From Leptolyngbya sp. (GTDB lineage: Bacteria; Cyanobacteriota; Cyanobacteriia; Phormidesmidales; Phormidesmidaceae), in contig JBEITR010000001.1 of assembly GCA_040374765.1 (NCBI GenBank), positions 25,422 through 89,421 of the forward strand: a stretch of 64,000 nucleotides of DNA, given 5' to 3'. How positions within the stretch are numbered: position 1 is the first letter of the stretch; each line of letters opens with the position of its first letter. Below are positions 1,454-60,145 of the stretch, piece by piece. Under the pieces are notes generated by a model. That model was not told where the DNA came from. It saw only the letters and a program-made list of their open reading frames with translations, and ran no database searches. The translations under genes were made by a program, and so were the position numbers.

Positions 1454-1521
1454 GCCAGAATGCCTACCCGTCCTTGACTTTCCCCACCCATTCGGTGCCC
1501 AGCGTCTTGCCCAAAACTATA
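1454..1521 (+). repeat. Family X copy I
   Basis: GCCAGAATGCCTACCC...CCCAGCGTCTTGCCCAAAACTATA. Starts 1 nt after the yebC stop and aligns to the copies at 29013 and 52000 with a 1-nt gap. Confidence 0.8.
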
Positions 1522-1534
1522 TTTTTAATTGGTA

Positions 1535-2296
1535 ATGACTAACCCTGCCGCGATCGCCACCAATCCCCTGATCCCTTCCCTCCAGGTGGGAGGGGAGCCC
1601 CTCTCCCCCTCAGACCTCATCCCCAAACTGCGGCGCTACGACTTACTGCCAGCCCTGGTCAAGGAAATTATTATTGATCAAGCTATTGTTCCTATTCACC
1701 TAACCGAGGAAGAACGGGCAACGGCCATCGATCAGTTTATTCAGGTTCAGAAAATCACTTCCCAGGATCAGCGCGATCGCTTTCTACAGCAACGAGGATT
1801 ACCGCCTGATGACTTCGACAGTCTGGCCTGCCGCGACCTTAAACTGCAAAAGTTCAAAGCCGAAACCTGGGGCCAAAAGCTAGAATCCTACTTTCTCCAA
1901 CGTAAAGCCCAGCTTGATCAGGTCCGCTATTCCCTCATTCGCACTCAGGAACCTGGTCTGGCCCAGGAGCTTTATTTCCGCATTCAAGATGATGGCCAAC
2001 CCTTTGCCGACCTAGCCCGAGAATTTTCAGCCGGGCCAGAGGCCCAGGTCGGCGGCCTAATTGGGCCAGTGGAACTATCGGTGCCCCATCCCCACCTGGC
2101 CAGGCTACTCTCCATTAGTCAACCAGGTCAGTTGTGGCCACCAAGCCGGATAGGGGATTGGTTTGTGGTGGTGCGTCTGGAGCAGTTTATCGCCGCCAGA
2201 CTAGATGACTCCACCCGACAGCGATTACTGGATGAGTTATTCCAAACCTGGCTGATGGAGCAGGTACAGGCAGTGATTCATCAAAGTAACGAGTAA
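1535..2296 (+). CDS. PpiC/parvulin-type peptidylprolyl isomerase (cyanobacterial family)
   Basis: [38 protein letters not shown] at 1535 (ORF track starts at TTG 1529). Confidence 0.88.
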
Positions 2297-2300
2297 ACCG

Positions 2301-5300
2301 GTGATGACCTCCATCACCCCGCCCTCTGGCTGGCAGTTTTGGATTGACCGGGGCGGCACCTTTACCGACATTGTTGCCCGTCGTCCCGATGGCACCTTAC
2401 AGGTCCATAAGCTGCTGTCAGAAAACCCCGACCGTTATGGCGATGCTGCCCTACAGGGCATAGGGGAAATACTTGGCCTGGCAGCCCACCAACCGATCCC
2501 CAGCGAGCGCATCGAGGCGGTAAAAATGGGCACGACGGTGGCTACCAATGCCCTGCTGGAACGCCAGGGCGATGCCACCGTCCTATTAATCACCCAGGGC
2601 TTCGGCGATGCCCTGCGGATTGGCTATCAGCAGCGTCCAGATATTTTTGCTCGCCATATTCAGTTACCCTCCATGGTTTATGAGCGGGTAATTGAGGTAC
2701 CAGAGCGCTACACAGCCGCGGGGGAGGAACTTCAGCCCCTACCCCCAGATGGGGACTGGGTAGGGGCTTTACAGGAAGCTTTTGACCAGGGCATCCGGAG
2801 CGTGGCGATTGTTTTTCTGCACGGCTACCAGTACCCCGCCCACGAACAGCAGGCAGCCGCGATCGCCCAGACCCTCGGTTTTACCCAAATTTCGGTGTCC
2901 CACCAGGTTAGCCCCCTGATCAAACTGGTCAGTCGGGGGGATACCACCGTTGTCGATGCCTATCTATCGCCGATCCTACGACGCTACGTCAATCAGGTCA
3001 GCCAATCCCTGGGGACTGTACCCCTACTGTTTATGCAGTCCAATGGCGGACTGGTGGAGGCCCAGCACTTTCAGGGCAAAGACAGTATTCTTTCAGGCCC
3101 AGCCGGGGGTATGGTGGCGGCCGTCAAAACCGCCACCGCCGCTGGTTTTAATAAAATTATTGGGTTTGATATGGGGGGCACCTCCACCGACATTTCCCAC
3201 TATAACGGCGAGGCCAACCCAGGGGATTACGAGCGCACCTTTGACACCGAGGTGGCGGGGGTGCGGCTACGGACTCCGATGCTGGCCATCCATACGATTG
3301 CCGCGGGGGGGGGATCGATCCTGGGCTTTGATGGCGGCCGTTACCGGGTAGGGCCTGAGTCGGCGGGGGCCTATCCAGGACCGGTGGCCTACCGCCAGGG
3401 CGGCCCCCTCACCCTGACGGACGCCAATCTGATGGTGGGCAAGATCCAACCGGCGTTCTTTCCAGCCCTCTTTGGTCCCCAGGGTAATCACCCCCTAGAT
3501 GGAGCCGCAGTCAGGCTAGCCTTTCAGGACCTGGCCCAGGAGATCGCCCAGGTGACCGGTGACCAACCCCAGCCGGAGGAAGTGGCAGCGGGCTTTCTGG
3601 CGATCGCCGTGGAAACCATGGCCAGTGCCATCAAGAAGGTTTCTATCCAGCGCGGCTATGACCTGGAGAACTACACCCTGTGTTGTTTTGGCGGCGCCGG
3701 TGGCCAGCACGCCTGCCTGATGGCGGAAACCCTGGGCATGGGGCGGGTCTTTCTCCATCCCCTGGCGGGGGTGCTATCGGCCTATGGCATGGGCCTGGCG
3801 GACCAACGGGTGATTAGGGAGCAAACCCTGGCCATTCCCCTCACCCCCACCTGCATGGCTAGCCTCAAGCAGTCCCTGGATCGCCTGGCGATCGCCACCC
3901 AGCGGGATCTCCACACCCAGGGCATAGGCCCTACCCCAATCCTGACCCTACGGCAGGTCCATCTCCGCTACCAGGGTAGTGATCTCCCCTTGATGTTGCC
4001 CTTTAGTGACCTGGCCAACCTGATCCGCCAGTTTGAGCAAATTCACCAACAACGTTACGGCTTTATTCAACCCGATCAGGCCCTGGTGGTGGAGGCTATC
4101 AGTGTAGAAGCCATTGCCCAAAACTCCCATCCGCCAGCTCCCGAACCCCTTCCCCAGGCATCTACGCCCCTGGTTCCGGTCACCACCGTTCCCCTCTATA
4201 GCCGCAGCCAATGGTGGGAAGCTAGGGTTTACCAGCGTTCTGACCTGCGGCCTGGAGACCAGATCGACGGGCCTGCCCTGATTGTGGAAGCCACCGCTAC
4301 CACGGTGGTAGAACCGGGCTGGCAGATGCACCTGACAGACCAGGGCAGCCTGATCGGCCAGATTACCCAGCCTGCCCCCTCAACCCTACCCACCCCACCC
4401 CAGTTGCCTAGGAAGCAGGGGGTTGCTCTACCATCAGGGGAAGATTCCACTGGAAAGGTGGATCCGGTCAAGCTGGAAATTTTCCATCATCGGTTTCGAT
4501 CCATCGCCGAGGAGATGGGCCTTACCCTACAAAACACCAGTGTTTCAGTCAATATTAAGGAACGGCTAGACTTTTCCTGCGCCCTGTTTGATCAACAGGG
4601 GCAGTTGGTAGCCAATGCTCCCCACATTCCTGTCCATTTAGGCTCCATGGGAGCAAGTGTGGCCAGTCTAATGCGCGATCGGGGAGCCACCCTAGCCCCT
4701 GGAGACGTCTATCTCTCTAACAACCCCTACAACGGTGGCACCCACCTACCGGATATCACGGTGATTACGCCGGTGTTTTTACCAGATGGCTGCCAGGGAC
4801 CCCATCTCTACGTCGCCTGCCGGGGCCACCATGCCGATATTGGCGGTCTCACCCCCGGTTCCATGCCCGCCCACAGCACCCACATCGATGAGGAGGGCAT
4901 CGGGCTGGATAATCTACTGCTGGTGCGCCAGGGAGAGTTTCTAGAGGCGGTCCTACGCGATCGGCTGCAGACGGGTCCTTACCCAGCGCGCAACATCCCC
5001 CAAAATCTGGCAGACCTGCGGGCCCAGGTGGCGGCTAACCAGCTCGGGGTGCAAGCCCTACAGCAACTGGTGGAGGAGATGGGTCTGGAACAGGTACAGG
5101 CCTATATGCAACACCTTCAGGATAACGCCGAGGCCAGTGTACGCCGGGTAATTGGGGGACTGCGGGGGGGATCCTTCAGCCTGTCGATGGACGAAGGCCC
5201 TACTATTCGGGTGGCGGTTACGGTCAACACCGTCAGCCGCTCTGCCAGGATTGATTTCACCGGTAGTTCCCCCCAGCAACCCACCAACTTTAACGCTCCC

Positions 5301-5993
5301 CTGGCGGTTTGTGAGGCGGTCGTACTCTACGTCTTTCGTACCCTGGTGGGGGACGACATTCCCCTCAATGCCGGTTGTCTGAAACCCCTGGAAATTGTGG
5401 CGCCGGTTGGTTCCCTGCTGAATCCCCAGTATCCAGCCGCCGTGGTGGGGGGCAATGTGGAAACCTCCCAGGCGATCGCCAATACCCTCTACGGAGCCCT
5501 GGGGCTGCTGGCCGCCGGTCAGGGCACCATGAACAACCTCACCTTTGGCAGCGATCGCCACCAGTACTATGAAACCATCTGCGGCGGGGCGGGGGCCGGG
5601 CCAGACTTCGACGGCGCCGATGCGGTACACACCCACATGACCAACTCCCGCCTCACCGACCCAGAGGTATTGGAATCTCGCTTTCCGGTTCTGGTGAAGG
5701 CATTTTCCCTCCGCCCCCATAGCGGCGGCGCTGGTCGGCATCGCGGCGGTAACGGCGTCATCCGGCGGCTGCAATTTCGAGAAACCATGACCGTTACCAT
5801 TCTCTCCAACCATCGCCGGGTTGCGCCCTTTGGGCTGGCGGGCGGTAAACCGGGCCAACCGGGGCAAAACTGGGTAGAACGCCGCGACGGCACAATTGAG
5901 ATGCTAGGTAGTCGAGACCAGGTCATCCTGCAGGCCGGTGACACTCTGACCATTGCCACCCCGGGCGGGGGAGGTTTCGGTACCCCCGACTAA
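2301..5993 (+). CDS. 5-oxoprolinase / hydantoinase A+B fusion
   Basis: [39 protein letters not shown] and TPGGGGFG motifs; 1230 aa. Confidence 0.95.
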
Positions 5994-6011
5994 ACCCGGC
6001 AGGATAATCAA

Positions 6012-8006
6012 TCAGCTGGGAGTAGGGAGGGCTGCCGGTTCCAGGGGCGCAGCAGGCAAGGCAGGGGCTGCGACAGTGCAGGCGGGCAGATCAAACCAGA
6101 AGGTCGTGCCCACCCCCACTTCACTCACCAGGTACACCTGGCTGTGGTGTTTTTCAATAATATTTCTCACAATGGAAAGCCCCAACCCCGTGCCCTCCAG
6201 GGTATGCACCCGATTCTCCACCCGGAAGAATCGATCAAAAATTGCCTGCTGATCCTCGGGGGCAATGCCAATGCCCGTATCCGCCACTTCGATGCGAATA
6301 CAATCGGTTTGGCCGGTCTGATCGCAGGGGCAGGGTAAACGATAGGCCCGCAGGCTGACCTTACCGCCAGACTCGGTAAATTTTAAGGCGTTACCCATCA
6401 GGTTACTAAATACCTGCAGCAGTAAATCGTAGTTACCCATCACCGGCGGCAGATTAGGCTCCACCATTTGGATCAGCTCGATTTGCTTATCTCTAGCGTT
6501 GAGCCGGTGGGTACGCAGGGTTTGCTCGATCGGTTGGGCAATGTCAACCGCATCAATGACGTACTGTCGACTCGACTCCAAGCGCGACAGATCCAGCACG
6601 TCGTTGACCAGACGGGTGAGGCGATCGGTTTCGTGGTTAGCGGTTTCTAAAAATTCTTGTCGCTCTGTATCACTCAGGTCCTCGCCGTATTCCTGCAGGG
6701 TTTCAATGAAAGACTTGATATTGAATAGGGGAGTGCGCAGTTCGTGGGATACATTACTGATGAACTGGGCCTTAGCCTCATTCAGGGCGGCTTCCCGGGT
6801 AATGTCCTGGACCGTAATGGCCAACCCTTTGACATTTTCCCGGGCCTGGTCCAGTACGGTATTGAGGAGAATACGCAGGGTGCGAGAGGTGGGCTCACTC
6901 AGGGGAATACGAAATTCCATCGCCTCCGCCTCTCCCTGGACAGCCTGAAACAGGGGACGGGTGAGCTGCACCCGAACCGGACTCGGCAAATGATCGAGGA
7001 TCAGTTCTCCGTCCAGGGACTGACTATCCCAACTAAAGATGCGTCGAGCGGTGGGGTTAACCAATACCACATGCATGTCGGTGTCCAGCAAAATTGCCCC
7101 ATCAGCAATGGTAGACACCAGGGTTTCTAACTTTGCCTTTTCGGCGGTTAGCTCCTCAATGTTTTGCTCCTCGTAGCGCTCCAGGCGCTCAGCCATGTCG
7201 TTGAAGCTGTAAATTAACTCCCCCAGTTCTCCCCCCAGGGGCAGATCAATACGCTGCTTAAAGTTGCCGGCAGCAATATTTTTAACCCCCAACAGCAGTT
7301 CCTTAATCGGTTTGGTAATGGTGAGGGCATTGAAAACTGAACCTAAAATCACCATCACCCAGATGGAAACAAACACCGCAGTGGTGACATCTCGGGTCAG
7401 ATGGGAGGAGGCAACCACCGTGGGGTTGGGGTTGATGCCCAGGGCCAGAATCCCCATTTGCTTGCCCTCATAGTTGAGGGGAACAAACACATCGGTAACC
7501 TCCCCGGCGGGGGTCAGGTGCTGGCGGACCAGGGGCAGATTGGTGTTCTGGGCGTAGCCTTCAGGCACTTGAATGCGCCGACGCAGGGTAAGGGAGTTGT
7601 CTACGGCGGCTTCCGAGAGGGGAATGCCAAAAAAGATCTCCCCATTTTCATCGGCGTAGAGCATGTAGCGCACACTGGTCGTGCTTTGATAAAAGCTGGA
7701 GGAGAATCGGGCCAGCTCGGCACGATCGCCCTCACTCACCAGGGGAGCTACATTGGCCGCCAGTAGCAGCCCCAGATCGCGGGCAAAGCGAGTGTCATTT
7801 AAGCGGGCATCGGACTGAATCGTATGGACAGCCCAAAAAGTCAGGGCACTGGTAATCAGGGACACCACCAGGGTAGCCCCGGCCATCAGCCGGGTCTGCA
7901 AGGTGAAATCGCCCCACCAGCGCCGAAAAAACTGGCGAATCTCTATAAATAGCCTGATCAAGGATATTTCGTCACTAAATACGATATTCCGCCTATATTT
8001 TGGCAC
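6012..8006 (-). CDS. nblS: Sensor histidine kinase Hik33/NblS/DspA
   Basis: WW.DFTLQTRLMA N-terminus, two TM segments, HAMP, PAS, SNVSHELRTP H-box and GTGLGL. The real start may be TTG at 7961. Confidence 0.92.
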   Translation of the reverse strand: MPKYRRNIVFSDEISLIRLFIEIRQFFRRWWGDFTLQTRLMAGATLVVSLITSALTFWAVHTIQSDARLNDTRFARDLGLLLAANVAPLVSEGDRAELARFSSSFYQSTTSVRYMLYADENGEIFFGIPLSEAAVDNSLTLRRRIQVPEGYAQNTNLPLVRQHLTPAGEVTDVFVPLNYEGKQMGILALGINPNPTVVASSHLTRDVTTAVFVSIWVMVILGSVFNALTITKPIKELLLGVKNIAAGNFKQRIDLPLGGELGELIYSFNDMAERLERYEEQNIEELTAEKAKLETLVSTIADGAILLDTDMHVVLVNPTARRIFSWDSQSLDGELILDHLPSPVRVQLTRPLFQAVQGEAEAMEFRIPLSEPTSRTLRILLNTVLDQARENVKGLAITVQDITREAALNEAKAQFISNVSHELRTPLFNIKSFIETLQEYGEDLSDTERQEFLETANHETDRLTRLVNDVLDLSRLESSRQYVIDAVDIAQPIEQTLRTHRLNARDKQIELIQMVEPNLPPVMGNYDLLLQVFSNLMGNALKFTESGGKVSLRAYRLPCPCDQTGQTDCIRIEVADTGIGIAPEDQQAIFDRFFRVENRVHTLEGTGLGLSIVRNIIEKHHSQVYLVSEVGVGTTFWFDLPACTVAAPALPAAPLEPAALPTPS

Positions 8007-8056
8007 GATTAGAAAAGTTTGGCTGGCATAGTACAGGAAAACTATCTATTCTAGCC

Positions 8057-11679: not shown

Positions 11680-11718
11680 AGGATACCTGGATTTGTCGGT
11701 CCAGGCACCCTTTAACCA

Positions 11719-12954: not shown

Positions 12955-13084
12955 GGATAGTTATCCCCCATCAATAAACATTATGAAGGGCATCCTATCA
13001 TGCCGGTTTCAGGGTGATCACCCTACTTCAAGGGATGTAAAGGGATTGCAACAGTCATTTACATTAGCCGAGAAAAAATCCGTC

Positions 13085-13176
13085 GCCCTAGCCCCTGGTG
13101 GCAAGCTAGAATGCCTTCCCCCTCTGTACCCTGATCAATTAATTCATCCTATCCTCAGCGATCTGAGCAACCCGAT
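13085..13176 (+). repeat. Family X copy P
   Basis: GCCCTAGCCCCTGGTGGCAA linker, then GCTAGAATGCCTTCCC...CCTATCCTCAGCGATCTGAGCAA. The linker matches the copy at 59076-59232. Confidence 0.65.
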
Positions 13177-13213
13177 GTTTGGGGCTAGGGAGTTTTCTAG
13201 GCCAAGGCCCGGT

Positions 13214-17050: not shown

Positions 17051-17051
17051 G

Positions 17052-17082
17052 GGTCCTCAGCGCGGCCAAAGCTATATCCCCT
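17052..17082 (+). repeat. Family X partial 3' copy J
   Basis: GTCCTCAGCG-CGGCCAAAGCTATATCCCCT. The last 19 nt (17064-17082) are identical to the reverse complement of 34550-34568. Confidence 0.7.
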
Positions 17083-17837: not shown

Positions 17838-17843
17838 GGTATG

Positions 17844-17876
17844 GCCCTAACCAACTGCAGCGGAGTGGAAGCAGGT
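17844..17876 (+). repeat. Family X partial 5' (linker) copy S
   Basis: GCCCTAACCAACTGCAGCGGAGTGGAAGCAGGT matches the linker at 42051-42083 at 21/33 positions, ungapped. Confidence 0.4.
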
Positions 17877-17955
17877 GATCACACTGGCGTGATTTTACCT
17901 GGAATATTTTCAAACTCACTAACCCCATGGTAGGATTAAAAGCCGTGGATAGGTT

Positions 17956-18037
17956 GGGTCGGTGCCCGAGTGGTTAATGGGGGCGGACTGTAAATCCGCT
18001 GGCTACGCCTACGCTGGTTCGAATCCAGCCCGGCCCA
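17956..18037 (+). tRNA. trnY: tRNA-Tyr(GTA)
   Basis: GGGTCGG acceptor stem, anticodon arm GCGGA-CTGTAAA-TCCGC, long variable arm and GGTTCGAATCC. CCA is not encoded. Confidence 0.97.
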
Positions 18038-18049
18038 TCCACGGCCCTT

Positions 18050-18121
<72 letters not shown>

Positions 18122-21352: not shown

Positions 21353-21449
21353 AGGAACCTCCGGGAAGTGAGAAACATCAAGGCCAGGATAGTAGCATTT
21401 TCTGGGCTGCCTTGAGACCCGTTGCAGAAGATGGTTAGTCAGTTAGCAG

Positions 21450-21518
21450 GGCAGAACGCCATTTACCCTAGGCTGTTGGCTAATGGACTCTGTCCTCAGG
21501 GTTGTGGTCAAAGCTATA
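21450..21518 (+). repeat. Family X copy C
   Basis: GGCAGAACGCC...GACTCTGTCCTCAGGGTTGTGGTCAAAGCTATA; 69 nt, same length as the copy at 52000. 14-nt identity with 44191-44204 (reverse complement). Confidence 0.8.
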
Positions 21519-28637: not shown

Positions 28638-28997
28638 ATGACCTCCTCCTCTCCCAATAAGTATCTGGCCTTCTGGCTAACCGGCTTGGGAGCATCCCTG
28701 CTGATTGCCGGATTGCTTTCTCCCTTCGCCAGCCCTAACCCCGATGGCCTAGACCGGGTCTCCCTGGACCACGGTTTTGCCAAGGTAGCCCAATCCCATC
28801 CCCCCAGTCACCACCTACCCTTCTACCAGTGGTTTGACTCCTACGCTCTACGGGGGGCGCCCTCGCCCCTTGCCACTCCCCTAGCGGGCATAGTAGGCAC
28901 CCTGGTAACCTTTGGCCTGGCCTGGGGAGTCGGTAAGTTGGTGGTCAAACCAGATCCAGGGAAGGCGGAACAGCCCCCTTCTCACCCATCCCCTTAA
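28638..28997 (+). CDS. PDGLE-domain protein (NikN-like ECF accessory component)
   Basis: TM-FASPNPDGLDRV-loop-TM architecture. Confidence 0.88.
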   Translation: MTSSSPNKYLAFWLTGLGASLLIAGLLSPFASPNPDGLDRVSLDHGFAKVAQSHPPSHHLPFYQWFDSYALRGAPSPLATPLAGIVGTLVTFGLAWGVGKLVVKPDPGKAEQPPSHPSP

Positions 28998-29012
28998 GTT
29001 GCCCGGTAACTC

Positions 29013-29087
29013 GCCAGAGCCCCTATCCGGCCTTCCCTTTGACCGCTCTATTCTATTCCTAGGGTTCTGGCCAAAGCTGTCCATACC
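29013..29087 (+). repeat. Family X copy D
   Basis: 10-bp closing stem GCCAGAGCCC/GGGTTCTGGC. GTTCTGGCCAAAGCT (29064-29078) is identical to 52051-52065. Confidence 0.88.
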
Positions 29088-29918: not shown

Positions 29919-29939
29919 ATATTGTTTCAAGCTAAGGCA

Positions 29940-30743
29940 ATGCACCATAATCCTATTACTATTGAGGACCTGAGCTACTCCTACGATGACGGCACCGTAG
30001 CCCTCAGTCAGATCAATCTGGCCATTGCTGCTGGCGAACGGGTCGCCTTGGTAGGGGCCAACGGTTCGGGTAAGTCAACGCTGTTGCTGCACCTAAATGG
30101 TATTATCTGGCCCCAGTCGGGGCAGATCACGGTGGGGGAACATCCCCTACATCCCGACCATGTCAAGACCATTCGCAATTTCGTCGGGGTAGTGTTTCAG
30201 AACCCCGACGACCAGCTATTTATGCCCACGGTGGAGGAAGATATTACCTTTGGGCCTATGAATCAGGGTCTCCGGGGTAGGGAACTGCTGCACCGCTGTC
30301 ACCATTGTCTCCATGCGGTAGGACTCAACCCAGCAGACTACTTACACCGCAGCCCCGATCACCTGTCGGGGGGTGAGAAACAGCGGGTAGCGATCGCCGG
30401 GGTGCTAGCCATGCAGCCCCAGGTGCTGGTGTTCGACGAACCCACCAGCCAGCTCGATCCCCGTTCCCGTCGTCAGTTGATTCACCTGCTGAAACACCTG
30501 CCCATGACCCAGTTGATCGCTACCCACGATTTAGATCTAGCCCTGGAACTATGCGATCGCACCATTGTCCTAAGTAAGGGCCGCATCGTTCGCCAGGGAC
30601 CCACAGCCCATGTACTCAGCGACCAGGGCTTTCTCCAGGGGCACTCCCTAGAATTACCCTTGAGCTTTAGTCGGCCCTACTGCCAGCTAGAAGATGCTCC
30701 CGTGCGGCTGGCCATGCGAGAGTCTTTGGCCCTATTGCCTTAA
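29940..30743 (+). CDS. cbiO: ECF transporter ATPase CbiO/NikO
   Basis: GANGSGKST, QNPDDQLF, LSGGEKQRV and DEPTS motifs. Confidence 0.93.
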   Translation: MHHNPITIEDLSYSYDDGTVALSQINLAIAAGERVALVGANGSGKSTLLLHLNGIIWPQSGQITVGEHPLHPDHVKTIRNFVGVVFQNPDDQLFMPTVEEDITFGPMNQGLRGRELLHRCHHCLHAVGLNPADYLHRSPDHLSGGEKQRVAIAGVLAMQPQVLVFDEPTSQLDPRSRRQLIHLLKHLPMTQLIATHDLDLALELCDRTIVLSKGRIVRQGPTAHVLSDQGFLQGHSLELPLSFSRPYCQLEDAPVRLAMRESLALLP

Positions 30744-30822
30744 TCCATGAAAGGGGTAGGGCCAGGAGGTTAATCCAAGGTTGCCTGGGGAATAGGGGTC
30801 AGAATTAAGGAGTCAGGATGTA

Positions 30823-30934
30823 GCCAGAACACCTACCTGGCCTTTGCCCTTTCGTGTCTCGTAGCTGATAGGCCTAGTGTTACGCGACATGAAATCGACC
30901 GATCAACTCTATCCCTAGGGTTCTAGCAAAAGCT
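30823..30934 (+). repeat. Family X copy E (long form with apical arm)
   Basis: GCCAGAACACCTA/TAGGGTTCTAGC closing stem, inserted hairpin TTTCGTGTC...GACATGAAA and CAAAAGCT tail. Confidence 0.85.
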
Positions 30935-30985
30935 AGGTTTTATGACCCCTATCGGAGGAAGCAAGCTCCATCTAGGGAGGGGAAC

Positions 30986-31298: not shown

Positions 31299-31375
31299 TA
31301 TGACTTTGGCCAGAATACTTCTGCCCCCTTACCGGGAGTCAGGGCCATACCCAAACCATCCATAGGTATTCTGCC
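31299..31375 (-). repeat. Family X copy K
   Basis: Closing stem GGCAGAATAC/GTATTCTGGC (9 of 10 pairs) plus CAAAGTCATA tail, in the bolA leader. Confidence 0.78.
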
Positions 31376-31727: not shown

Positions 31728-31783
31728 GACTTTGTCCAAACTGATGAGGACCCAGTGGATGGGTCCCTTGGATGCTTCCTAGC
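31728..31783 (-). repeat. Family X degenerate copy U
   Basis: Minus-strand GTCCTCATCAGTTTGGACAAAGTC matches the 3' half of the family without gaps. Confidence 0.5.
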
Positions 31784-32355: not shown

Positions 32356-32462
32356 TATGACTTTGGTCGGTAGGCTAAGGAGCCGGTTAGTCGGTCAAAA
32401 CGGAGACTAGGTAGGGGGTATGACTTACCTTGAGGGGTAGGTACAGCCTTCAGTAAAAGGCT
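32356..32462 (-). repeat. Family X copy O
   Basis: 69-nt core (32356-32424) is 44/69 identical, ungapped, to 52000-52068. It is preceded by the 5' hairpin AGCCTT/AAGGCT. Confidence 0.75.
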
Positions 32463-34549: not shown

Positions 34550-34570
34550 AGGGGATATAGCTTTGGCCAG
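34550..34570 (-). repeat. Family X partial 3' copy F
   Basis: Minus-strand CTGGCCAAAGCTATATCCCCT, 19 nt identical to 17064-17082. Confidence 0.65.
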
Positions 34571-34617
34571 CAACTTTTCACCCGTTATCCTCAGCTCCGA
34601 CTCAACCCGTCGATCCC

Positions 34618-35963: not shown

Positions 35964-36013
35964 TTTAGAACGCCTGCTGAAGGGACTCTCGCAAGGCCAG
36001 AGCTATCCATACC
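35964..36013 (+). repeat. Family X collapsed copy V
   Basis: TTTAGAACGCCTGC...ACTCT...GGCCAGAGCTATCCATACC. The tail differs from that of copy D at only 2 of 19 positions. Confidence 0.6.
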
Positions 36014-37594: not shown

Positions 37595-37863
37595 AGTTGT
37601 ATACCGTAGGTGAGGAGAGGGTTTCTATTGATGGCCCCATCCTAGCCTGTTTAATAACTGGCGGGTTCTATCTATACCCATTCTTTCTAAAGTCTCCAGG
37701 TTTGGCCCCTAAGACCCTGTTGTCCCGAATCGGCAGGTTAAAATAATGTAGGATTTTGGTCAAAACTGCGAAGATTCAGTTAACGAATCAACTCCCAGGT
37801 CTGGGTAGCCTCCCTTGCTACCCCTTACCTATAGCTTCAAGAATTTCCTAATCTTTCCCAGCC

Positions 37864-42011: not shown

Positions 42012-42196
42012 ACGGCTTTCCATAACTACAGCCCCCGAGGCTGGTGGATAGCCGTAGCCACGGTCAACGGAGCGGAGGCGAGCAGGAGTGCCCCCCTGGT
42101 ATTACCGTTTTCATAGGTCGTCACAGAAAATCTGTCAGTTACCAGCCATGCAATTAATCGGTTAACTCTGTCCTTAGCCTTCTGGGCAAAGCTATC
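42012..42196 (+). repeat. Family X copy R1 (longest form)
   Basis: 5' hairpin ACGGCT...AGCCGT; linker 42055-42082 is 24/28 identical to the reverse complement of 60104-60131; 42138-42173 is 26/36 identical to 30879-30914. Confidence 0.85.
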
Positions 42197-42230
42197 TATT
42201 TCCCAAGGTGCTTGCTAAGGATTTCAAATC

Positions 42231-42299
42231 CCCTGCATGGGAAGCCAGGACAGCTCTTAACCGATTGACTCTGTCCTAAGCAGACTGGCCAAGGCTACA
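42231..42299 (+). repeat. Family X copy R2 (tandem with R1)
   Basis: CCGATTGACTCTGTCCTAAGCAGACTGGCCAAGGCT, 103 nt downstream of the same segment in R1. Confidence 0.8.
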
Positions 42300-44186: not shown

Positions 44187-44344
44187 AAACTTGACCACAA
44201 CCCTAAAGAGAGAGCCGACAGACAGTACGAAAGCCTCGTAACTGACCAGCTAGTCTCGGATTACGAGCCATTGATAAGATGAAGCCTGGATAGGCATTCT
44301 GGCTAACCTCCGTCCCGTTACCCGGAACTACGGCTTTAAAGGCC
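44187..44344 (-). repeat. Family X copy N (long form)
   Basis: First 50 nt are 37/50 identical, ungapped, to the copy at 60036-60145. Apical stem CTCGTAA/TTACGAG and AGGGTTGTGGTCAA 3' arm. Confidence 0.88.
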
Positions 44345-50311: not shown

Positions 50312-50377
50312 TCCAGTCAGGCTGCAGCTCTCAGCCTATAGCCTATGGCACTGCCATCTTGTCCTAACCGGACTGGT
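50312..50377 (+). repeat. Family X copy X
   Basis: Closing stem CCAGTCAGG/CCGGACTGG (8 of 9 pairs). TGTCCTAACCGGACTGG closely matches copy R2. Confidence 0.55.
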
Positions 50378-50425
50378 GACTGCCATACACCCCCGGTTAA
50401 CCCCGTTGAGTTTGCTATAGTTACT

Positions 50426-51408: not shown

Positions 51409-51422
51409 CCTAGGAAACCTGA

Positions 51423-51824: not shown

Positions 51825-51984
51825 CCCGGTCATGCGGAGGCGAAATGTTTCTCTATAGACTCAAGCCTTGTTGTATAGGGATAGCCAGAATCCTTCGCTG
51901 CCAGGGATAGTTGAGGATTGGGACAAACGCCCTTTGATAAAAGAGCTATTTAAGGACATCCTTTCGGCCCCATGGCTCAGGGTT

Positions 51985-52070
51985 ACGGCGGGAAGGTGCG
52001 TCAGCACGCCTACCCAGTCTTCGCTTTTGCCGATAAACTCTGTACTAAACGTTCTGGCCAAAGCTCTATA
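51985..52070 (+). repeat. Family X copy A
   Basis: 59-nt stem-loop at 52000-52058 is 46/59 identical, ungapped, to the reverse complement of 60046-60104. Confidence 0.9.
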
Positions 52071-52091
52071 TCATCTCCCTACCCTGACACC

Positions 52092-53432: not shown

Positions 53433-53552
53433 GCGGTGAGTTACAAGGTAGATCTCCAGTTCCTAAGCCGGACGAAGGTGATTAACCCTGGAAAAATTTT
53501 TCTGCAGAAATCAAGGTAACGTGGTCCGGATGGAGGCGCACTATTAGTCCCT

Positions 53553-54491
53553 ATGGTTATGGCTAACTTTAACAGTCCAGGCGATCGCCCCCTACTGATT
53601 ACTGGTGTGAGTGGCTTTCTGGGCTGGCATCTGAGTCGCTTAGCAAAAACCACAGGGCTGGTACAGGGTACCTACCACCGCCATCCGGTGGACCAGCCAG
53701 GAGTTGCGGTGGCCAAAATCGACCTTACCGCCAGGGTCGGGCTATGGTCCTGGCTGGTGGATCTAAACCCAACGGCGGTAATTCATACAGCTGCCCTCTC
53801 CCAACCCAACCACTGTGAACAAAAGCCCGACCAATCCTACGCCATCAATGTGATCGCTACCCGTACCCTGGCGGAGTTTTGTGGTAGCCGGTCTATTCCC
53901 TTTGTGTTTACCTCCACCGAACAGGTCTTCGATGGAGAAGCCGCTCCCTACTCAGAAGTCAGTACTCCCCACCCCATTAATACCTATGGCCATCACAAGT
54001 TAGAAGCCGAGGGTATGATTCGGGAAGTACATCCCAACCCCATCATTTGTCGGTTACCCCTGCTCTATGGACCGGCCACCCCGATGGCCGGATCTTTTCT
54101 TCAAGGCTTTTTGCAGACCTTAGCCGCGGGCCAACCCCTGTCTCTGTTTGTTGACGAATTTCGTAGTCCCGCCTACGTCGAAGATGTGGCCTATGGTCTG
54201 CTGTTAGCCCTGAAAATCGGAGTAGATCTAATCCATCTAGGGGGACCCGAGCGGATCAGCCGCTATGAATTTGGCTTGCGGATGGCAGAGGTATTTGACT
54301 TACCGCAAGACTTGCTGATTCCCAGCTATCAACGGGATGTAACCATGCCCGCCCGCCGACCCGCCGATGTCTCTACCGATAACCGTCGAGCCCTAGCCCT
54401 GGGGTACCATCCCCGCGGGGTAGGGGCCGGGCTCCAGGCTGTTAAGCAATGGCAGGCGATCGATGGTAGTAACCCGGCCCAGTTCCATTAA
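53553..54491 (+). CDS. RmlD-like NAD(P)-dependent oxidoreductase
   Basis: ITGVSGFLG, STEQVFDG, YGHHKLEAE and DEFRSP motifs. Confidence 0.87.
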   Translation: MVMANFNSPGDRPLLITGVSGFLGWHLSRLAKTTGLVQGTYHRHPVDQPGVAVAKIDLTARVGLWSWLVDLNPTAVIHTAALSQPNHCEQKPDQSYAINVIATRTLAEFCGSRSIPFVFTSTEQVFDGEAAPYSEVSTPHPINTYGHHKLEAEGMIREVHPNPIICRLPLLYGPATPMAGSFLQGFLQTLAAGQPLSLFVDEFRSPAYVEDVAYGLLLALKIGVDLIHLGGPERISRYEFGLRMAEVFDLPQDLLIPSYQRDVTMPARRPADVSTDNRRALALGYHPRGVGAGLQAVKQWQAIDGSNPAQFH

Positions 54492-54517
54492 AATGATAAG
54501 GCTATCCCGTAGGCAGA

Positions 54518-55759
54518 ATGGCCATTCCTTCCCTCGACCTTGACTATGTACGCCAGCAGTTTCCCGCCCTGGGTCAGGGCTGGACTTTTTTTGATAATGC
54601 TGGTGGCTCCCAGGTACTGAGGGGCGTGGTGGACCGCATCAGCGAGTTTCTGTACGGATCTAATGTCCAGTTAGGGGCTTCCTATGCCCTTTCCCAGTTG
54701 GCGGCGGAACGGGTCGCCGCTGGCACCCAAGCCATGGCCACCCTGATCAATGCCGCTGACCCTGGCGAGGTGGTGTTAGGCTCCAGCACCTCGGCTCTGT
54801 TGCGAATGCTGGCGCAGTGTCTGGGGGCTACCCTGGCTGCAGGGGACGAGATTATTGTTACCAATAGCGATCATGAGGCTAATCTGAGTCCCTGGCGGTC
54901 TCTAGCCTGCATCGGTATAACGGTAAAGACCTGGGCCGTTAACCCCACTACCTTTGAGCTGGATCTGGCCGATCTAGAGGCCTTGCTGACTCCCCGCACC
55001 CGCCTGGTGACGGTGACCCATACCTCTAACGTGTTGGGCACCCTAAACCCAATTCGGGCCATCGCCGATCGGGTCCATGCCCAAGGAGCCTTAGTTTGTG
55101 TTGATGGGGTAGCCTTTGCTCCCCACCGTCAGATAGATGTCCAGGCGCTGGATGTGGACTTCTATAGCTTCAGCCTCTATAAGGTCTACGGCCCCCACAT
55201 TGCCCTCCTCTACGGCAAGCGCGATCGCCTGTTGGCCTTGCCGGGCTACAATCACGATTTCATCGAAGCCAGCGCCATTCCCTACAAGTTTCAGCCGGGG
55301 GGCACCTGTTACGAGTTGAGCTATAGCCTGGTGGCGATCACGGAGTATTTACAAAACCTGGCCCAGCACCACTGGGGAGCGGCGATCGGAGTGACCCCAG
55401 CCGATCAACTAGGTCAGGCCTTTGCCCTGATTGAGGCCCACGAAGCCCAATTGGGGGACCGCCTGTTGAGCTTTCTGAACTCCAGATCGGGGGTACGGGT
55501 AATCGGTTCTACAAGTGCCGACGGCAACCAACGCGTCCCCACCATTTCCTTTGTGGTAGAAGGCTTGGGGAGCGATCAAATACCGCCCCACCTGGATAGC
55601 CAAAGGATCGGTCTGCGCTCTGGCCACTTCTATGCCCCCCGCTTAATCGAGGCGTTGGGCCTGCTACCCCACCAAGGAGTTGTCCGGGTTAGTATGGTGC
55701 ATTACAACACCCTGGAGGAGTGCGATCGCCTGATTGATCACCTCAGTCCCATACTGTAG
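54518..55759 (+). CDS. Class V PLP aminotransferase, cysteine desulfurase-like but lacking the catalytic Cys
   Basis: FDNAGGSQ, FSLYKVYGPH (PLP Lys) and RSGHFYA in place of RxGHHCA. Confidence 0.85.
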   Translation: MAIPSLDLDYVRQQFPALGQGWTFFDNAGGSQVLRGVVDRISEFLYGSNVQLGASYALSQLAAERVAAGTQAMATLINAADPGEVVLGSSTSALLRMLAQCLGATLAAGDEIIVTNSDHEANLSPWRSLACIGITVKTWAVNPTTFELDLADLEALLTPRTRLVTVTHTSNVLGTLNPIRAIADRVHAQGALVCVDGVAFAPHRQIDVQALDVDFYSFSLYKVYGPHIALLYGKRDRLLALPGYNHDFIEASAIPYKFQPGGTCYELSYSLVAITEYLQNLAQHHWGAAIGVTPADQLGQAFALIEAHEAQLGDRLLSFLNSRSGVRVIGSTSADGNQRVPTISFVVEGLGSDQIPPHLDSQRIGLRSGHFYAPRLIEALGLLPHQGVVRVSMVHYNTLEECDRLIDHLSPIL

Positions 55760-55781
55760 AAATTCCCCTGCTTATCTGCCT

Positions 55782-58700
55782 ATGTCCCTCTCCTCACTGC
55801 AAGCCCAGCTCGACCGCTACTATCGCCAGATCAAAACTACGATTCTGGTACGCCAGCATCCCGTCAGTGGATTGATGCCCGCTAGTACGGCAGTGAATAG
55901 CCACGGTAACTACACCGATGCCTGGGTGCGCGACAATGTCTACAGCATTCTGGCCGTATGGGGTCTGGCCCTGGCCTATCGCCGCCTGGATGACGACCAG
56001 GGCCGCACCGTAGAGCTGGAACAAAGCGTGGTCAAGTTGATGCGGGGATTACTCCTAGCGATGCTGCGTCAAGCCGCTAAAGTCGAGCGCTTTAAGGAGC
56101 GGCAGGACCCCCTGGAAGCCCTCCACGCCAAGTATGACACCGCCACCGGTACTCCCGTAGTGGGAGACGGCGAATGGGGGCATCTGCAAATTGATGCCAC
56201 CTCTGTGTTTCTGCTGATGCTGGCCCAAATGACCGCCTCCGGGCTTCAGATTATCTATACCCTGGATGAAGTTAACTTTGTCCAGAACCTGGTGTACTAC
56301 ATTGGTCGCGCCTACCGGACCCCCGACTATGGGATTTGGGAACGGGGAAACAAAATTAACCACGGCAAGCCAGAGCTCAACGCCAGTTCCGTGGGCATGG
56401 CTAAGGCGGCCCTGGAAGCTATGCGGGGGATGAACCTCTTTGGTATGCGAGGAGGACAGGCTTCCATGATCCACGTACTCCCCGATGAAATTGCCCGGGC
56501 CCGTATTACCCTAGAATCCCTCTTACCTCGGGAGTCAGGATCGAAGGAGGTAGATGCGGCTCTGCTAAGTGTGATTGGCTTCCCGGCCTTTGCCATGGAG
56601 AATGCCGATGTGGTGCGCCAGACCCGTCAGAAAATTATCGATAAACTACAGGGTCGCTATGGCTGTAAGCGCTTTCTTCGGGACGGTCACCAGACCGTTA
56701 TTGAAGACACCAGTCGCCTGCATTACGAACCCGAAGAGCTGAAACAGTTCGAGCATATCGAGTGTGAGTGGCCCCTATTTTTTACCTATCTGTGGCTCGA
56801 TAGTCTGTTTAGCGGCGATCGCGACGCTATTGCTGACTATCGAGAACGTCTGGCGGACCTGGCGATCGATGATGATGGCCAGGCTCTCTTACCCGAACTC
56901 TACTACGTCCCCGCCGACAAGCTAGAACTGGAACGCCAACAGCCCGGTAGTCAAAACCGCCAACCCAACGATAACCTGCCCCTAATCTGGGCTCAAAGCC
57001 TCTACCTGCTGGGCCAACTGATCGACGATGGTCTGCTCAAACCCGAGGATCTAGACCCCCTGGGCCGCCACCGTCTGGTGGGAGAGCAACGCTACCCAGT
57101 ACTTCAGTTAGCCCTGCTGGCCGAAGATAGGGCCCTGCGGGAGGAACTCAGTACCTATGGCCTGACTACCCAAACCCCTGCGGAAATTGCTCCTATTCAG
57201 GTATTTCCGGCCACCGAGTTATCGGCTATTTACGCCGAAATTGGCAAAAATCCAACCCTGGGCCTGAGTGGACGCCCCATCCGTCGGCTGCGGAGCTTAA
57301 CCACCTCGCGCATCTTTCGCATTCAAAACAGTCAGGTGGTCTTCCTGCCCTCTTTCCTAGACCAAGAGCGGTTTTACCTCACCCTTGACTACCACTTTCT
57401 GGTAGCCCAAATCCGTAGTGAACTGGCCTACATCTACGACCATTGGCGGGAACCTGGTCGCCCCACCCTGACCCTACTACTCACCCATGCCATGTTTCAA
57501 CTGGGCCATAAGCCCATCCATGAATCCCCCCTGTTGGCTCTGATGCAGGAACTAATGACCGGGCGTTGTGACCATGTACCGGTCAAACTCGCCCCCCTAC
57601 ACCAGCTGATCATGACCACCAGCCTAGAGCGGGTAGATAATCTCAACAACTACCAGTTGGGTAGTAGCGCCATGATCTATCCTTCGCCCTGGACTGCCTA
57701 CCTGGGCTTTGAACCCAATCGAGATGGGCCGCTATCGGTGGTAGAAGAATTTGACCTGGAACGAGAAACTAATCTGGAACGGCTGCTGGCCCAACTCCAG
57801 GCCTCTAACAATGTCTATGCACAGGTGGAACTGCTCAGTACCCTCAAACACCTCAAAGGTCTGGGTTTTGATACAGGCCTAGGGGGTCCCCAGCGTCGGG
57901 TAACTGTCACCGATCTACTAGATGAGATCTATGCTAAGGCCAGCCAGCTAGAACAGTGGGATATTTTGCGGCGGACAGCGGGTCTACTGGAAAAAACCGA
58001 CATCAGTCTATCGGATGCGGTGACGGAGTTACTCGTCAGACAAAAGCAAATTTCCGTGGGCAAGGCCTACAGCGAAGATTCCCTGATTACCGAGCCCATG
58101 GCCCATGGGGAAATTATTGAGAAAATTCGCACCTTCTGCGGCGACGATGTACGCGATCATGTCCTCACCCAGGAGGTCTTAATTGACTTGAGTTTGCTAA
58201 TGAAGGCCGAACCCAGCCTTTTTAAGGGTCTCCTCACCCTACGGGTAGGCTACCTACTGCTGCTGCTGACCAGCGAACTAGCTCGAGAGCGACAACTTCC
58301 CCAGGACGAAGCCTACGGGGAACTGCTCAGCCTCAGTCCCTTTGAACTAAAAACTCGCCTGCGTCAGGTACTGGCCGGGTTTAGTGGACTAAACCAATCG
58401 ATTTTTCAGCGGGAGTCTTTGCGCGTTAAACCCCTCACCGATATCAACTGGGAGGTGCTTCCAGCCGAAGTTGAAAAAGCGCCAGTCGAGACCGCTACCA
58501 GCCCTCAGGATTGGTGGCGCAAGCGGGTAATTGATGGGGAGATTACCCGTATTCCCTCAGAGTTTTATACCCAATTGTGGGAAGTACTTAAACACTGCAA
58601 AGGCATTGTGATTGGTAACAAGCTAGATCGTAAGAATCGCCTGGATAGCGCTTCCATTCTGTCGGAGATGACTCCCGGCGAACAAAATTTCGAGCGTCGG

Positions 58701-59015
58701 ATTACCCACTTGCTTAGTAAGATCGAAGCTCCTGAGTATCGCCATGTCAATTTGGAGGCACTACGGGAGATGGGAGAAATCTTGAAGGTTAATCCCGATC
58801 TCTACTTTGAAGACTATCTCTATCTAGATGTATTGATTGGCCACGCCGTGCGTATAGGTTGGCTAGACCACCAGCCTCAACGAGCATCAACCTACGAAAG
58901 TGATAAAGCAGCGGCCTGGCAACGCTTTTATCAACTCTCCCCCAGCCAGTGCGCCACCTACATTGCCAGAGCCCTAGAATTTCTAACCGAATTGGGGGAA
59001 CCAGAGGCTGCTTAA
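55782..59015 (+). CDS. GH15-like phosphorylase kinase alpha/beta subunit homolog
   Basis: DAWVRDNVYS, WGHLQIDA, PDYGIWERG, YGCKRFLRDG and EWPLF motifs; about 1077 aa. Confidence 0.9.
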   Translation: MSLSSLQAQLDRYYRQIKTTILVRQHPVSGLMPASTAVNSHGNYTDAWVRDNVYSILAVWGLALAYRRLDDDQGRTVELEQSVVKLMRGLLLAMLRQAAKVERFKERQDPLEALHAKYDTATGTPVVGDGEWGHLQIDATSVFLLMLAQMTASGLQIIYTLDEVNFVQNLVYYIGRAYRTPDYGIWERGNKINHGKPELNASSVGMAKAALEAMRGMNLFGMRGGQASMIHVLPDEIARARITLESLLPRESGSKEVDAALLSVIGFPAFAMENADVVRQTRQKIIDKLQGRYGCKRFLRDGHQTVIEDTSRLHYEPEELKQFEHIECEWPLFFTYLWLDSLFSGDRDAIADYRERLADLAIDDDGQALLPELYYVPADKLELERQQPGSQNRQPNDNLPLIWAQSLYLLGQLIDDGLLKPEDLDPLGRHRLVGEQRYPVLQLALLAEDRALREELSTYGLTTQTPAEIAPIQVFPATELSAIYAEIGKNPTLGLSGRPIRRLRSLTTSRIFRIQNSQVVFLPSFLDQERFYLTLDYHFLVAQIRSELAYIYDHWREPGRPTLTLLLTHAMFQLGHKPIHESPLLALMQELMTGRCDHVPVKLAPLHQLIMTTSLERVDNLNNYQLGSSAMIYPSPWTAYLGFEPNRDGPLSVVEEFDLERETNLERLLAQLQASNNVYAQVELLSTLKHLKGLGFDTGLGGPQRRVTVTDLLDEIYAKASQLEQWDILRRTAGLLEKTDISLSDAVTELLVRQKQISVGKAYSEDSLITEPMAHGEIIEKIRTFCGDDVRDHVLTQEVLIDLSLLMKAEPSLFKGLLTLRVGYLLLLLTSELARERQLPQDEAYGELLSLSPFELKTRLRQVLAGFSGLNQSIFQRESLRVKPLTDINWEVLPAEVEKAPVETATSPQDWWRKRVIDGEITRIPSEFYTQLWEVLKHCKGIVIGNKLDRKNRLDSASILSEMTPGEQNFERRITHLLSKIEAPEYRHVNLEALREMGEILKVNPDLYFEDYLYLDVLIGHAVRIGWLDHQPQRASTYESDKAAAWQRFYQLSPSQCATYIARALEFLTELGEPEAA

Positions 59016-59018
59016 AAT

Positions 59019-59038
59019 CCCCTGAAAGAGGGGCTTTT
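59019..59038 (+). terminator. Probable terminator of the GH15 gene
   Basis: CCCCT-GAAAG-AGGGG followed by CTTTT, 3 nt after the stop. Confidence 0.55.
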
Positions 59039-59075
59039 CAAACATCTCACCAGCGTGGAGTAAAACCCCATCGAC

Positions 59076-59232
59076 AGTTTTAGCCAGAATAGTTCGAACA
59101 GGGCTAGTCAATCAATTAAATGTCCCGGCATTGATCTATGGCGAGCCCCAAAGGGAATCCTGGATAGGTGTTCTGGTTTGCCCCAAGGGCTGTTTGAAAA
59201 AGCTATTGAATCCAAAGAGCTTTCAAACAGCC
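59076..59232 (-). repeat. Family X copy G with an expanded 5' hairpin
   Basis: Minus strand reads GGCTGTTTGAAA...TTTCAAACAGCC hairpin, GCCCTTGGGGCAA linker, ACCAGAACACCTATCCAGG...ATTCTGGCTAAAACT. Confidence 0.78.
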
Positions 59233-59322
59233 TTACCGCCCTGTTAAACCTGTCTAACGCTATAGACTGTTGTCAGTCCTGTGCTATCGGTTAGAGCTTC
59301 TCGGCAACCCCAGTATTTTTCT

Positions 59323-59733
59323 CTAGAGGATTGGAACCTCTCCAATGGTTGGGAGGCCGGACTGACGGTCACTGAGGTAGTAGCTCCACCGTGCAACGTA
59401 GGGGGCCTTAGCCACCAGATCTTCGGGAAGCTTTAAATTCTTATTGGCAAGGGAGAAGTCGGGATTAGCCGATCTAATTTCAACCTGCTGTCCGGACCGG
59501 ACCGGGATCTGAGGTGTTGAATCAATATTTCCTATAGTTCGCCCCGACCAGGGGTCTACGTCTTGAGGGTAAAAAGAATTAGAGCGATTAGGCGCAGCAA
59601 TAATGGCTATAAGGGTGGTGACAATCACCACAACTAAAGCATCAAAACGGTTTAGTTCAATCGATCTACCAGGAGACCAGGGGGTAAAGTCTTTCATAGT
59701 AAAAGTGGTTAAAACCACAGGATTGGGGGTCAT
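59323..59733 (-). CDS. Hypothetical single-TM protein with a pilin-like helix
   Basis: DALVVVIVTTLIAIIAAP resembles the type IV pilin N-terminal helix; start uncertain. Confidence 0.55.
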   Translation of the reverse strand: MTPNPVVLTTFTMKDFTPWSPGRSIELNRFDALVVVIVTTLIAIIAAPNRSNSFYPQDVDPWSGRTIGNIDSTPQIPVRSGQQVEIRSANPDFSLANKNLKLPEDLVAKAPYVARWSYYLSDRQSGLPTIGEVPIL

Positions 59734-59989
59734 TTAGTCTGAGTCTGTCTCCAGACTTATGTCGTATAGGTTAGCTACAAATCCTGGGTCCAGCTATTGG
59801 GCTGTCGCACTCTTGACAAGCAATCGGCTATGTATTAAAACTCTTAAGTTTTGAATTTTTCCAGGGCTAAATTAACCAATAAAAAAGGGGTCTGACCCCT
59901 CTTTCGATACCCTTTTGACACTTTTGACAGAAGATATTGTGGCAATCGGTAGACAAGCTAACCGGCAGAAAACTCAGGGAGTAAGGGTG

Positions 59990-60021
59990 AAAAAAAAAGC
60001 TACCTGCTGGGGGAGGTAGCT
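59990..60021 (-). terminator. Intrinsic terminator of groESL
   Basis: 8-bp stem AGCTACCT/AGGTAGCT followed by a run of about 8 T on the minus strand. Confidence 0.8.
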
Positions 60022-60035
60022 GCGAAGAATATTGG

Positions 60036-60145
60036 TATAACTTGGGTCAGGACGCTGAGTACAGAACTTATCGACAAAAGCAAAAGCTGAGTAAGCGTTC
60101 TGACTCGCCTCCATACCGTTGAGCGTGGCTAGGGCTTTAAAGGCC
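60036..60145 (-). repeat. Family X copy B
   Basis: GGCCTTTAAAGCC 5' hairpin, linker, GTCAGAACG...CGTCCTGAC stem and tail. Lies between the groEL stop and its terminator. Confidence 0.9.

Follow-up and report, generated by a model that had tools for sequence, protein, structure and literature searches.

The stretch of DNA analyzed here (the window) comprises 64,000 nucleotides (nt) of a draft genome deposited as Leptolyngbya sp. (assembly GCA_040374765.1, contig JBEITR010000001.1, positions 25,422 to 89,421 of the forward strand). Dispersed along it are copies of a short, diverged repeat that we designate family X. Family X is very probably a non-autonomous DNA transposon, a MITE (miniature inverted-repeat transposable element) of the IS630/Tc1-mariner type, which is old and immobile in this genome and was once moved in trans by an ISY100-like transposase. 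It appears to be an unnamed family of a known class, and neither a new class of element nor an RNA family; a literature search for its end sequences returned chance primer matches only and no paper with these ends.

The genome that carries family X is 3.49 Mb in 120 contigs, with a G+C content of 53.7% and 2,492 HIP1 sites, which mark it as cyanobacterial. The motif GGCCAAAGCTAT occurs 52 times in it, where ~0.4 occurrences would be expected, and a listing of near-matches to this motif with their left flanks led to a single common layout of ~104 nt. A hidden Markov model (HMM) derived from an alignment of 48 full copies was used with nhmmer at a threshold of E ≤ 1e-3 and returned 458 matches, 189 of them near full length, that occupy 36.7 kb or 1.05% of the DNA. 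Based on crude calls of open reading frames (ORFs), 86% of these matches lie outside ORFs. A preliminary description of the window, made from its letters, had proposed a dispersed, intergenic, MITE-like repeat with hundreds of copies per genome, and these figures bear that out. The density that it gave, one copy per 3-4 kb, is too high for the genome as a whole, in which matches are spaced at one per 7.6 kb; the window is therefore above the genome average. Selected full copies share a mean pairwise identity of 64%. In being short (104 nt, or ~150 nt in a long form), non-coding and dispersed in many copies (the 458 matches), family X has the general properties of a MITE.

Full copies measure 104 nt and read TA-TAGCCGTAGCC ... 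GGCCAAAGCTA-TA, that is, terminal inverted repeats (TIRs) lying between TA dinucleotides. The element starts with TATAGCCGTAGCC and finishes with GGCCAAAGCTATA, and similarity among copies stops exactly there, such that the left end TATAGCYNTAGCC and the right end GGCCAAAGCTATA mark the homology boundary of the aligned copies. When reverse-complemented, the right end reads TATAGCTTTGGCC and agrees with the left end TATAGCCGTAGCC at 10 of 13 consensus positions. The TIRs are 13-14 nt long, where the preliminary description had seen no clear inverted repeats. Nested self-insertions of family X, which would fix the exact boundaries, were sought and none was found. The consensus of the family is TATAGCCGTAGCCACGTGTAACGGGGCGGAGGCGAGCCAGAACGCCTACCCAGTCTTAGCTTTGACCGATCAACCCTGTCCTCAGCGTTCTGGCCAAAGCTATA. 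Each unit has two hairpins, of which the left one consists of the left end plus an inverted copy of the left end, and the main one is GCCAGAACGC...GCGTTCTGGC; the layout described earlier, with a hairpin, a linker, a main stem-loop and a tail, is accurate for the consensus. A long subfamily of ~150 nt differs by an extra hairpin of ~45 nt (CATGTCTCGTAAC...GTTACGAGACATG), whose internal site is fixed. This hairpin was also considered as an independent mini-element, a candidate that was rejected given that convincing copies occur only within family X. In a few copies, the stretch that the arms GCCAGAAC and GTTCTGGC enclose runs the other way round with respect to the ends (in the window's genome at C95:~1728, C82:~50259, C95:120475-120577 and C82:84644-84746), which looks like an inversion across the hairpin arms.

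In order to score copies in the window itself, the HMM was applied at window-level E-values together with an unfiltered covariance model (CM), and 20 shuffled windows, in which the best nhmmer score was 8.2 bits, served as the control. The best full copy lies at 60036..60139 (- strand; CM 78.4 bits, E 6e-22; nhmmer 71.1 bits). Further full copies occur at 51963..52068 (+; CM 63 bits; nhmmer 68.7 bits), 32356..32458 (-; CM 39.7 bits; nhmmer 35 bits) and 28969..29081 (+; CM 52 bits, E 9e-14; nhmmer 41.7 bits); the last of these is aligned by nhmmer from HMM position 33 only and recovered as a full copy by the CM. A full-length, diverged copy is present at 13081..13177 (+; nhmmer 23.2 bits, HMM 5-97; CM 26.6 bits). 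The long form is represented by a complete variant of ~150 nt at 42047..42195 (+; nhmmer 33.7 bits for HMM 2-66 and 29.8 bits for HMM 50-103), beside which lies a partial copy of the right part (42210..42299, +; HMM 60-102; nhmmer 27.5 bits; CM 18.4 bits). Other long copies are found at 44187..44340 (-; right part decayed; nhmmer 40.3 bits, HMM 4-67; CM 39.5 bits), at 30805..30937 (+; with the extra internal hairpin; two collinear nhmmer pieces of 13.4 and 21.7 bits; CM 18.9 bits) and at 59076..59264 (-), where a diverged copy is detected as three collinear pieces of 7.0, 14.4 and 6.6 bits at HMM 1-29, 30-65 and 61-101, respectively.

The remaining members are incomplete. A 5'-truncated copy occupies 1431..1521 (+; HMM 34-104; nhmmer 25.8 bits; CM 28.1 bits), and a copy with a degraded left third occupies 21420..21518 (+; HMM 33-104; nhmmer 27.6 bits; CM 24 bits). 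A copy of 51 nt at 31299..31349 (-; CM 24.4 bits, E 3.3e-5) has kept both ends and lost the loop of the main hairpin. Two members had been overlooked in the preliminary description, namely a solo left-end fragment (TGTAGCCGTAGCCCC...GGGGC) at 605..640 (-; CM 21.0 bits, E 3.9e-4; nhmmer 8.2 bits) and a heavily decayed copy at 37755..37850 (-; nhmmer 11.3 bits; CM 13 bits, E 0.11). Smaller pieces include a left-half fragment at 17840..17947 (+; nhmmer 11.9 bits, HMM 1-48; CM 16.4 bits), a 3'-terminal fragment at 17051..17076 (+; HMM 76-104; nhmmer 9.4 bits against the best shuffle of 8.2), a 17-nt right-end fragment (CTGGCCAAAGCTATA) at 34556..34572 (-; nhmmer 9.6 bits, barely over the shuffles) and a weak internal fragment at 31730..31765 (-; nhmmer 9.0 bits, barely over all shuffles). 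Two neighboring tRNA genes (window 17956-18121) lie directly downstream of the left-half fragment.

The preliminary description had listed 15 near-complete copies and six fragments by their approximate starts. Eleven of the 15 are firm by HMM and/or CM (1454, 13085, 21450, 29013, 30823, 32356, 42012, 42231, 44187, 51985 and 60036) and stay solid against the shuffled control, although the label "near-complete" does not suit 1454 and 21450, which are really 5'-truncated (HMM positions 33-104). The copy at 59076 stands as a diverged long copy with a best piece of 14.4 bits, and that at 31299 as a family member with an internal deletion. The weaker entries were partly lost: 27644, at 6.0 bits, falls below the best shuffled window and is inseparable from chance, and membership of 50312 in family X is unsupported by HMM and CM. 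Four fragments (17052, 17844, 31728 and 34550) score slightly over all shuffles, at 9.0-11.9 bits, whereas 35964 and 47143 are unsupported; the stretch at 35964-36010 has no HMM support and a CM score of 7.6 bits (E 5.4). The ungapped match counts between copies that had been reported (46/59, 37/50 and 24/28) were all reproduced exactly. Near the discounted entry at 50312, window 50339-50420 holds an element of ~82 nt (TATAGCCTATGGCAC...GGTTAACCCCGTTGAGTTTGCTATAG) with TATAGC ends and a GGTTAACC palindrome, which has no HMM or CM match to family X and may be a second TA-type MITE. Another segment unrelated to family X, at window 30353-30460 within an ORF (29922-30743), has many separate matches of 70-80% identity in each of four congeneric genomes and is a conserved, multi-copy segment in its own right.

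Family X is not confined to this genome. In a scan of species-representative genomes with an exact 17-mer, the carriers were Nodosilinea and "Leptolyngbya" metagenome-assembled genomes (MAGs) as well as several unclassified cyanobacterial MAGs. A CM built from the copies detected the element in 15 of 31 relatives. Applied to 301 genomes sampled evenly across the class, it detected the element in 26, which represent 20 of 143 genera and at least nine families. Two of the carriers hold young copies. In G003, a member of the same genus, there are ~28 visibly near-identical copies of a 130-nt form, and in G224, which belongs to another family, at least 10 identical copies of 103 nt are 82.5% identical over their full length to the consensus of the window's genome. 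The G224 master copy was compared with plasmids using BLAST and gave no match.

These young copies often sit in other dispersed repeats, and uninterrupted paralogues of the host repeats were used as empty sites. For copy L139 of G003, the filled site reads GGGTTT-TA[TAGCC...GCTA]TA-TTTCATCC and the empty paralogues read GAGTTT-TA-TTGAATCC; copy L137 of the same genome adjoins a repeat whose other copies finish ...GATTGG-TA. For copy L179 of G224, the filled site is CTTT-TA[...]TA-ATTTTAC, as compared with CACTTT-TA-ATTTTAC in three empty paralogues. Two further G224 copies, L183 and L185, have exactly 2 nt at the paralogue junctions (TG or TT in one, CA in the other), which are single substitutions away from TA in paralogues that are 6-12% diverged. 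The paralogous empty sites thereby define the element proper as TAGCC...GCTA with a 2-bp duplication of TA, where the preliminary description had seen no target duplication. A 2-bp TA duplication is the signature of the IS630/Tc1-mariner superfamily, and by homology it probably holds for the copies in the window's own genome as well. The host repeats of L137, L139, L179 and L183 belong to dispersed families with many copies throughout the genus. One host family in G003 finishes ...GGCATGGACGATTGGTA and may be a TA-targeting element too, and one in G224 is AT-rich and contains AAAAATGAAAAGTTAAAAGTTCAAAATGG.

The ends of family X also agree with those of a recognizable group of autonomous insertion sequences (ISs), a correspondence that had gone unseen when no cognate transposase and no named match were reported. 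Intact IS630-family genes were recovered by a DDE_3 domain search from G003, G016 and G028, whereas the window's genome yielded nothing beyond short relics. One IS in the congener G016 (L164 820-1781; G016:C137) is 958 bp long with the ends TATAGCTATGGCCAAGATAGTTAGGACG and, in reverse complement, TATAGCTGTGGCCATCTAAGTTAGGACG. It encodes HTH_Tnp_IS630 and DDE_3 domains, scores 121.6 bits against the NCBIfam IS630 model and has two ORFs (orfA and orfB) that are split at an A8 run, a possible programmed frameshift. This insertion is fresh and lies at a single TA of a GGDEF/EAL-type gene, and the reading frame continues across it, with ...TVYA on one side and INLSGASL... on the other. Full-length relatives with ~68% identity to the G016 IS reside on Nostoc plasmids, where they are annotated as IS630 family transposase and have the ends TATAGCCGTAGCCATTTCAGTTAGGACG. 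The left end of family X, TATAGCCGTAGCCA, is identical over its first 14 of 14 nt to the right inverted repeat (IR) of these plasmid elements, and the right end, TATAGCTTTGGCCAGAACGCTGAGGAC, has the terminal block and AGGAC box that are common to the IS630 elements. In the G003 subfamily, GTTAGGAC stands in register at the left end and CTTAGGAC at the right, and its TTAGGAC box is as far from the end as that of the IS630 elements. The end pattern common to the MITE and to the ISY100-like IS630 elements of G016 and the Nostoc plasmids is TATAGCYRTRGCCA, six bases and TTAGGAC. Family X therefore combines insertion into TA with duplication and ends homologous to those of an autonomous IS630 element.

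Several observations indicate that the family is no longer mobile here. When the G016 ORFs were used as tblastn queries against the window's genome, the catalytic (DDE) ORF matched only relics of 33-34 amino acids, and the DNA-binding helix-turn-helix (HTH) ORF gave a single match with 35% identity. This genome was also searched for elements of kb size with a left family X end on one side and a right one on the other, and only the long variants of ~150 nt were recovered. The sister species Nodosilinea sp. Deming_bin.353 is ~94% identical over ~260 kb of compared loci. Of its 77 element matches in these loci, 62 lie at orthologous positions that score here too, and most of the other 15 were aligned. 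Identity between the two genomes is 88.2% for the elements, 92.3% for other spacer DNA and 95.0% for ORFs, with 97.4% at first, 98.4% at second and 89.1% at third codon positions. Since the elements (88.2%) are close to third codon positions (89.1%) and below other spacers (92.3%), they drift approximately neutrally and faster than the remaining spacer DNA, and the mean pairwise identity of 64% among copies places the burst long before the split from the sister. A scan of indels between the two genomes found one deletion within an element, unrelated indels and no clean empty site; in that one case, a "left-only" fragment here is explained by a 130-nt deletion between short repeats, the long copy being intact in the sister. 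In congeners of 75-78% identity, orthologous spacers were too diverged to align, and the CM matched none of the orthologous loci that were sampled, among them the spacer opposite the 44187 copy. Metagenome contigs of related strains, compared with 20 kb of the window, showed no joint that skips an element; contigs of such strains from several metagenomes carry elements and break at them.

Based on these findings, we propose that an ISY100-like DDE transposase of the IS630 family would have acted in trans on the two-part ends (TAGCYRTRGCCA, six bases, TTAGGAC), excised the element and pasted it into TA, with duplication of the TA. The burst in this Nodosilinea-like genome is old and an intact transposase of that type is missing; the ~450 remaining copies are probably immobile fossils, which point mutations and deletions between short repeats wear down. 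That such a transposase moved these particular copies is inferred.

A number of points weigh against this account. No empty site was found for any copy in the window's genome, and the TA duplication is transferred from homologues in G003 and G224. At the left end of the consensus of the window's genome, the inner TTAGGAC box is unrecognizable, and past ~28 nt the interior of the MITE has no similarity to the IS, so family X did not arise from it by simple deletion. No IS with family X ends was found in G003, where all ~28 left ends belong to MITE copies, and G224, a draft assembly, yields a transposase fragment only. The whole 100-nt sequence, and not the ends alone, is kept across at least nine cyanobacterial families. 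In spacers between co-oriented genes, copies lie along the genes in 126 cases and against them in 82 (p = 0.003, with crude gene calls), and passive decay offers no explanation for this bias, which could reflect an insertion preference, the replication strand or weak selection.

The hairpins might suggest a family of cis-regulatory RNAs or of genes for structured non-coding RNAs, maintained one by one for their fold, and the consensus can indeed fold into two hairpins plus a closing stem. RNAalifold, run on 46 full copies, returned no consensus structure. In a three-helix model, 77.5% of cells are paired as compared with 77.0% when partners are shuffled among sequences, and the figures for an alternative right-hand hairpin are 78.6% and 79.1%; covariation measures for both hand-drawn structures showed no excess over shuffled controls. 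Without compensated mutations in individual copies, pairing is a property of the ancestral master sequence. Given the neutral divergence as well, the layout is the fossil of one master sequence and not a structure maintained by selection. Rfam at the gathering threshold reported only the two tRNAs in the whole window, and at E ≤ 10 the best copy drew a lone chance miRNA match (18.5 bits against a threshold of 90), in agreement with the earlier statement that the family is absent from Rfam. With copies on both strands relative to neighboring genes, and with the TA duplication and IS630-type ends as marks of a transposon, we regard an RNA family as very improbable. Even less credible is a REP/BIME-like (repetitive extragenic palindrome) or IS200/IS605-derived palindrome moved in single-stranded form by a Y1 (RAYT/TnpA) transposase. 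In the left end, GTAG does precede a small palindrome, cyanobacteria are known to harbor REPs tagged with GTAG (PMC3733652), and the genome encodes three Y1_Tnp (IS200/RAYT-type) proteins (C18:33962-34318, C16:864-1208 and C4:517-651). Yet no copy of family X lies within 3 kb of any of these three genes, the right end has no GTAG, the unit measures 104 nt rather than 20-40 nt, and both the 2-bp TA duplication and true TIRs homologous to IS630 ends point elsewhere.

A further proposal, compatible with a MITE origin, is that some copies have been recruited by the host as promoter, 5'-untranslated region or transcript-stability elements, in which case the family would in part act as a regulatory module; we consider this unlikely. 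The orientation bias speaks for recruitment, as does the right (3') end facing a gene start in 217 cases against 154, although both figures rest on crude ORF calls. Each end together with its TA gives TATAnn, similar to a -10 box, and functional motifs are known on the Correia elements of Neisseria (PMC2229807). The consensus, however, has no -35-like box at a usable distance, and with TATA at both ends promoter donation cannot explain the bias. Furthermore, copies are found in each of the four spacer types, with 72 of them in convergent spacers, and the class as a whole diverges neutrally and faster than other spacer DNA. Somewhat more plausible, while still tentative, is that the whole ~100-nt element, interior included, is a single long-lived lineage with ~80% identity across at least nine families that is active today in some of them, as the identical G224 copies would indicate; in addition, host selection on inserted copies could underlie the orientation bias. 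The full-length conservation across distant cyanobacteria exceeds what the ends alone need. If this were true, either a non-coding passenger would have spread horizontally more than once, together with ISY100-like elements, or transposition would depend on the interior. In the latter case, the transposase could, for example, bind the inverted internal copy of the end as a second site, or need the hairpins.

Family X reveals no new kind of system. What the assignment provides is that ~1% of this genome, and many Nodosilinea and other cyanobacterial spacers, can now be attributed to one MITE family with defined ends. The label keeps the hairpins from being mistaken for riboswitches, terminators or small RNAs, and it accounts for the assembly breaks at these sites. 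The family also offers a natural series, in which the ~450 fossils without a transposase in this genome stand at one end, congeners that had young bursts in the middle and ISY100-like partners that are intact at the other end.

ISY100, the presumed type of the partner transposase, is active in vitro. Also called ISTcSa, it is a 947-bp element of Synechocystis PCC 6803 that duplicates TA and has 24-bp imperfect IRs bound by an N-terminal HTH domain (PMC2170065). Its excision junction is TATATA (PMC2170065), which implies that ISY100 itself starts and finishes with TA. The G016 IS, at 958 bp, is close to it in length, likewise duplicates TA and also has TA at both termini. The ends of the MITE, the G016 element and the Nostoc plasmid elements are alike over ~27 nt, compared with IRs of 24 bp in ISY100, for which the likeness is one of published description only. 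Unlike an ISY100-like IS, family X has no transposase and has only ~28 nt in common with it at each end. Among cyanobacterial MITEs, Nezha of Anabaena and Nostoc is 130-170 bp long and carries the TIRs of ISNpu3, an IS that is absent from the host genome (PMC3184786). Its direct repeat is ~10 bp, CATTATCTAC in the reference copy (PMC6042816). Family X was considered as Nezha and set apart by this published description, given its 2-bp duplication; with a direct repeat of ~10 bp in place of TA, Nezha uses another transposase family and is a separate element.

The TIRs, the TA duplication and the ISY100-like ends place family X in a known class, beside RUP and Correia, as their cyanobacterial counterpart with the same split into short and long forms. 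In this comparison, promoter, IHF and RNase III roles are documented for the Correia elements alone. Their ends, which begin TATAG and have a CAGGAC box ~20 nt in, may resemble those of family X, and we take this as a lead only. RUP of the pneumococcus is a non-coding element of ~107 bp with about a hundred or more intergenic copies, TIRs like those of an IS630-family IS (IS630-Spn1), a TA target and presumed mobilization in trans (PMC2229807). It is like family X in length, IS630-type ends and target, and unrelated to it in sequence and host phylum. In family X, moreover, the partner-type IS is gone from the genome, the copies are ancient and there are ~4 times as many of them, the two genomes being of comparable size. 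The Correia/NEMIS elements of Neisseria have TA termini, a target duplication, TIRs of ~24 bp and hundreds of copies, in size classes of ~107 and 155 bp, the larger of which has ~50 bp more in its interior (PMC2229807). Family X, in a different host, parallels them in a comparison of architecture alone, with forms of 104 nt and ~150 nt that are set apart by an internal hairpin of ~45 nt.

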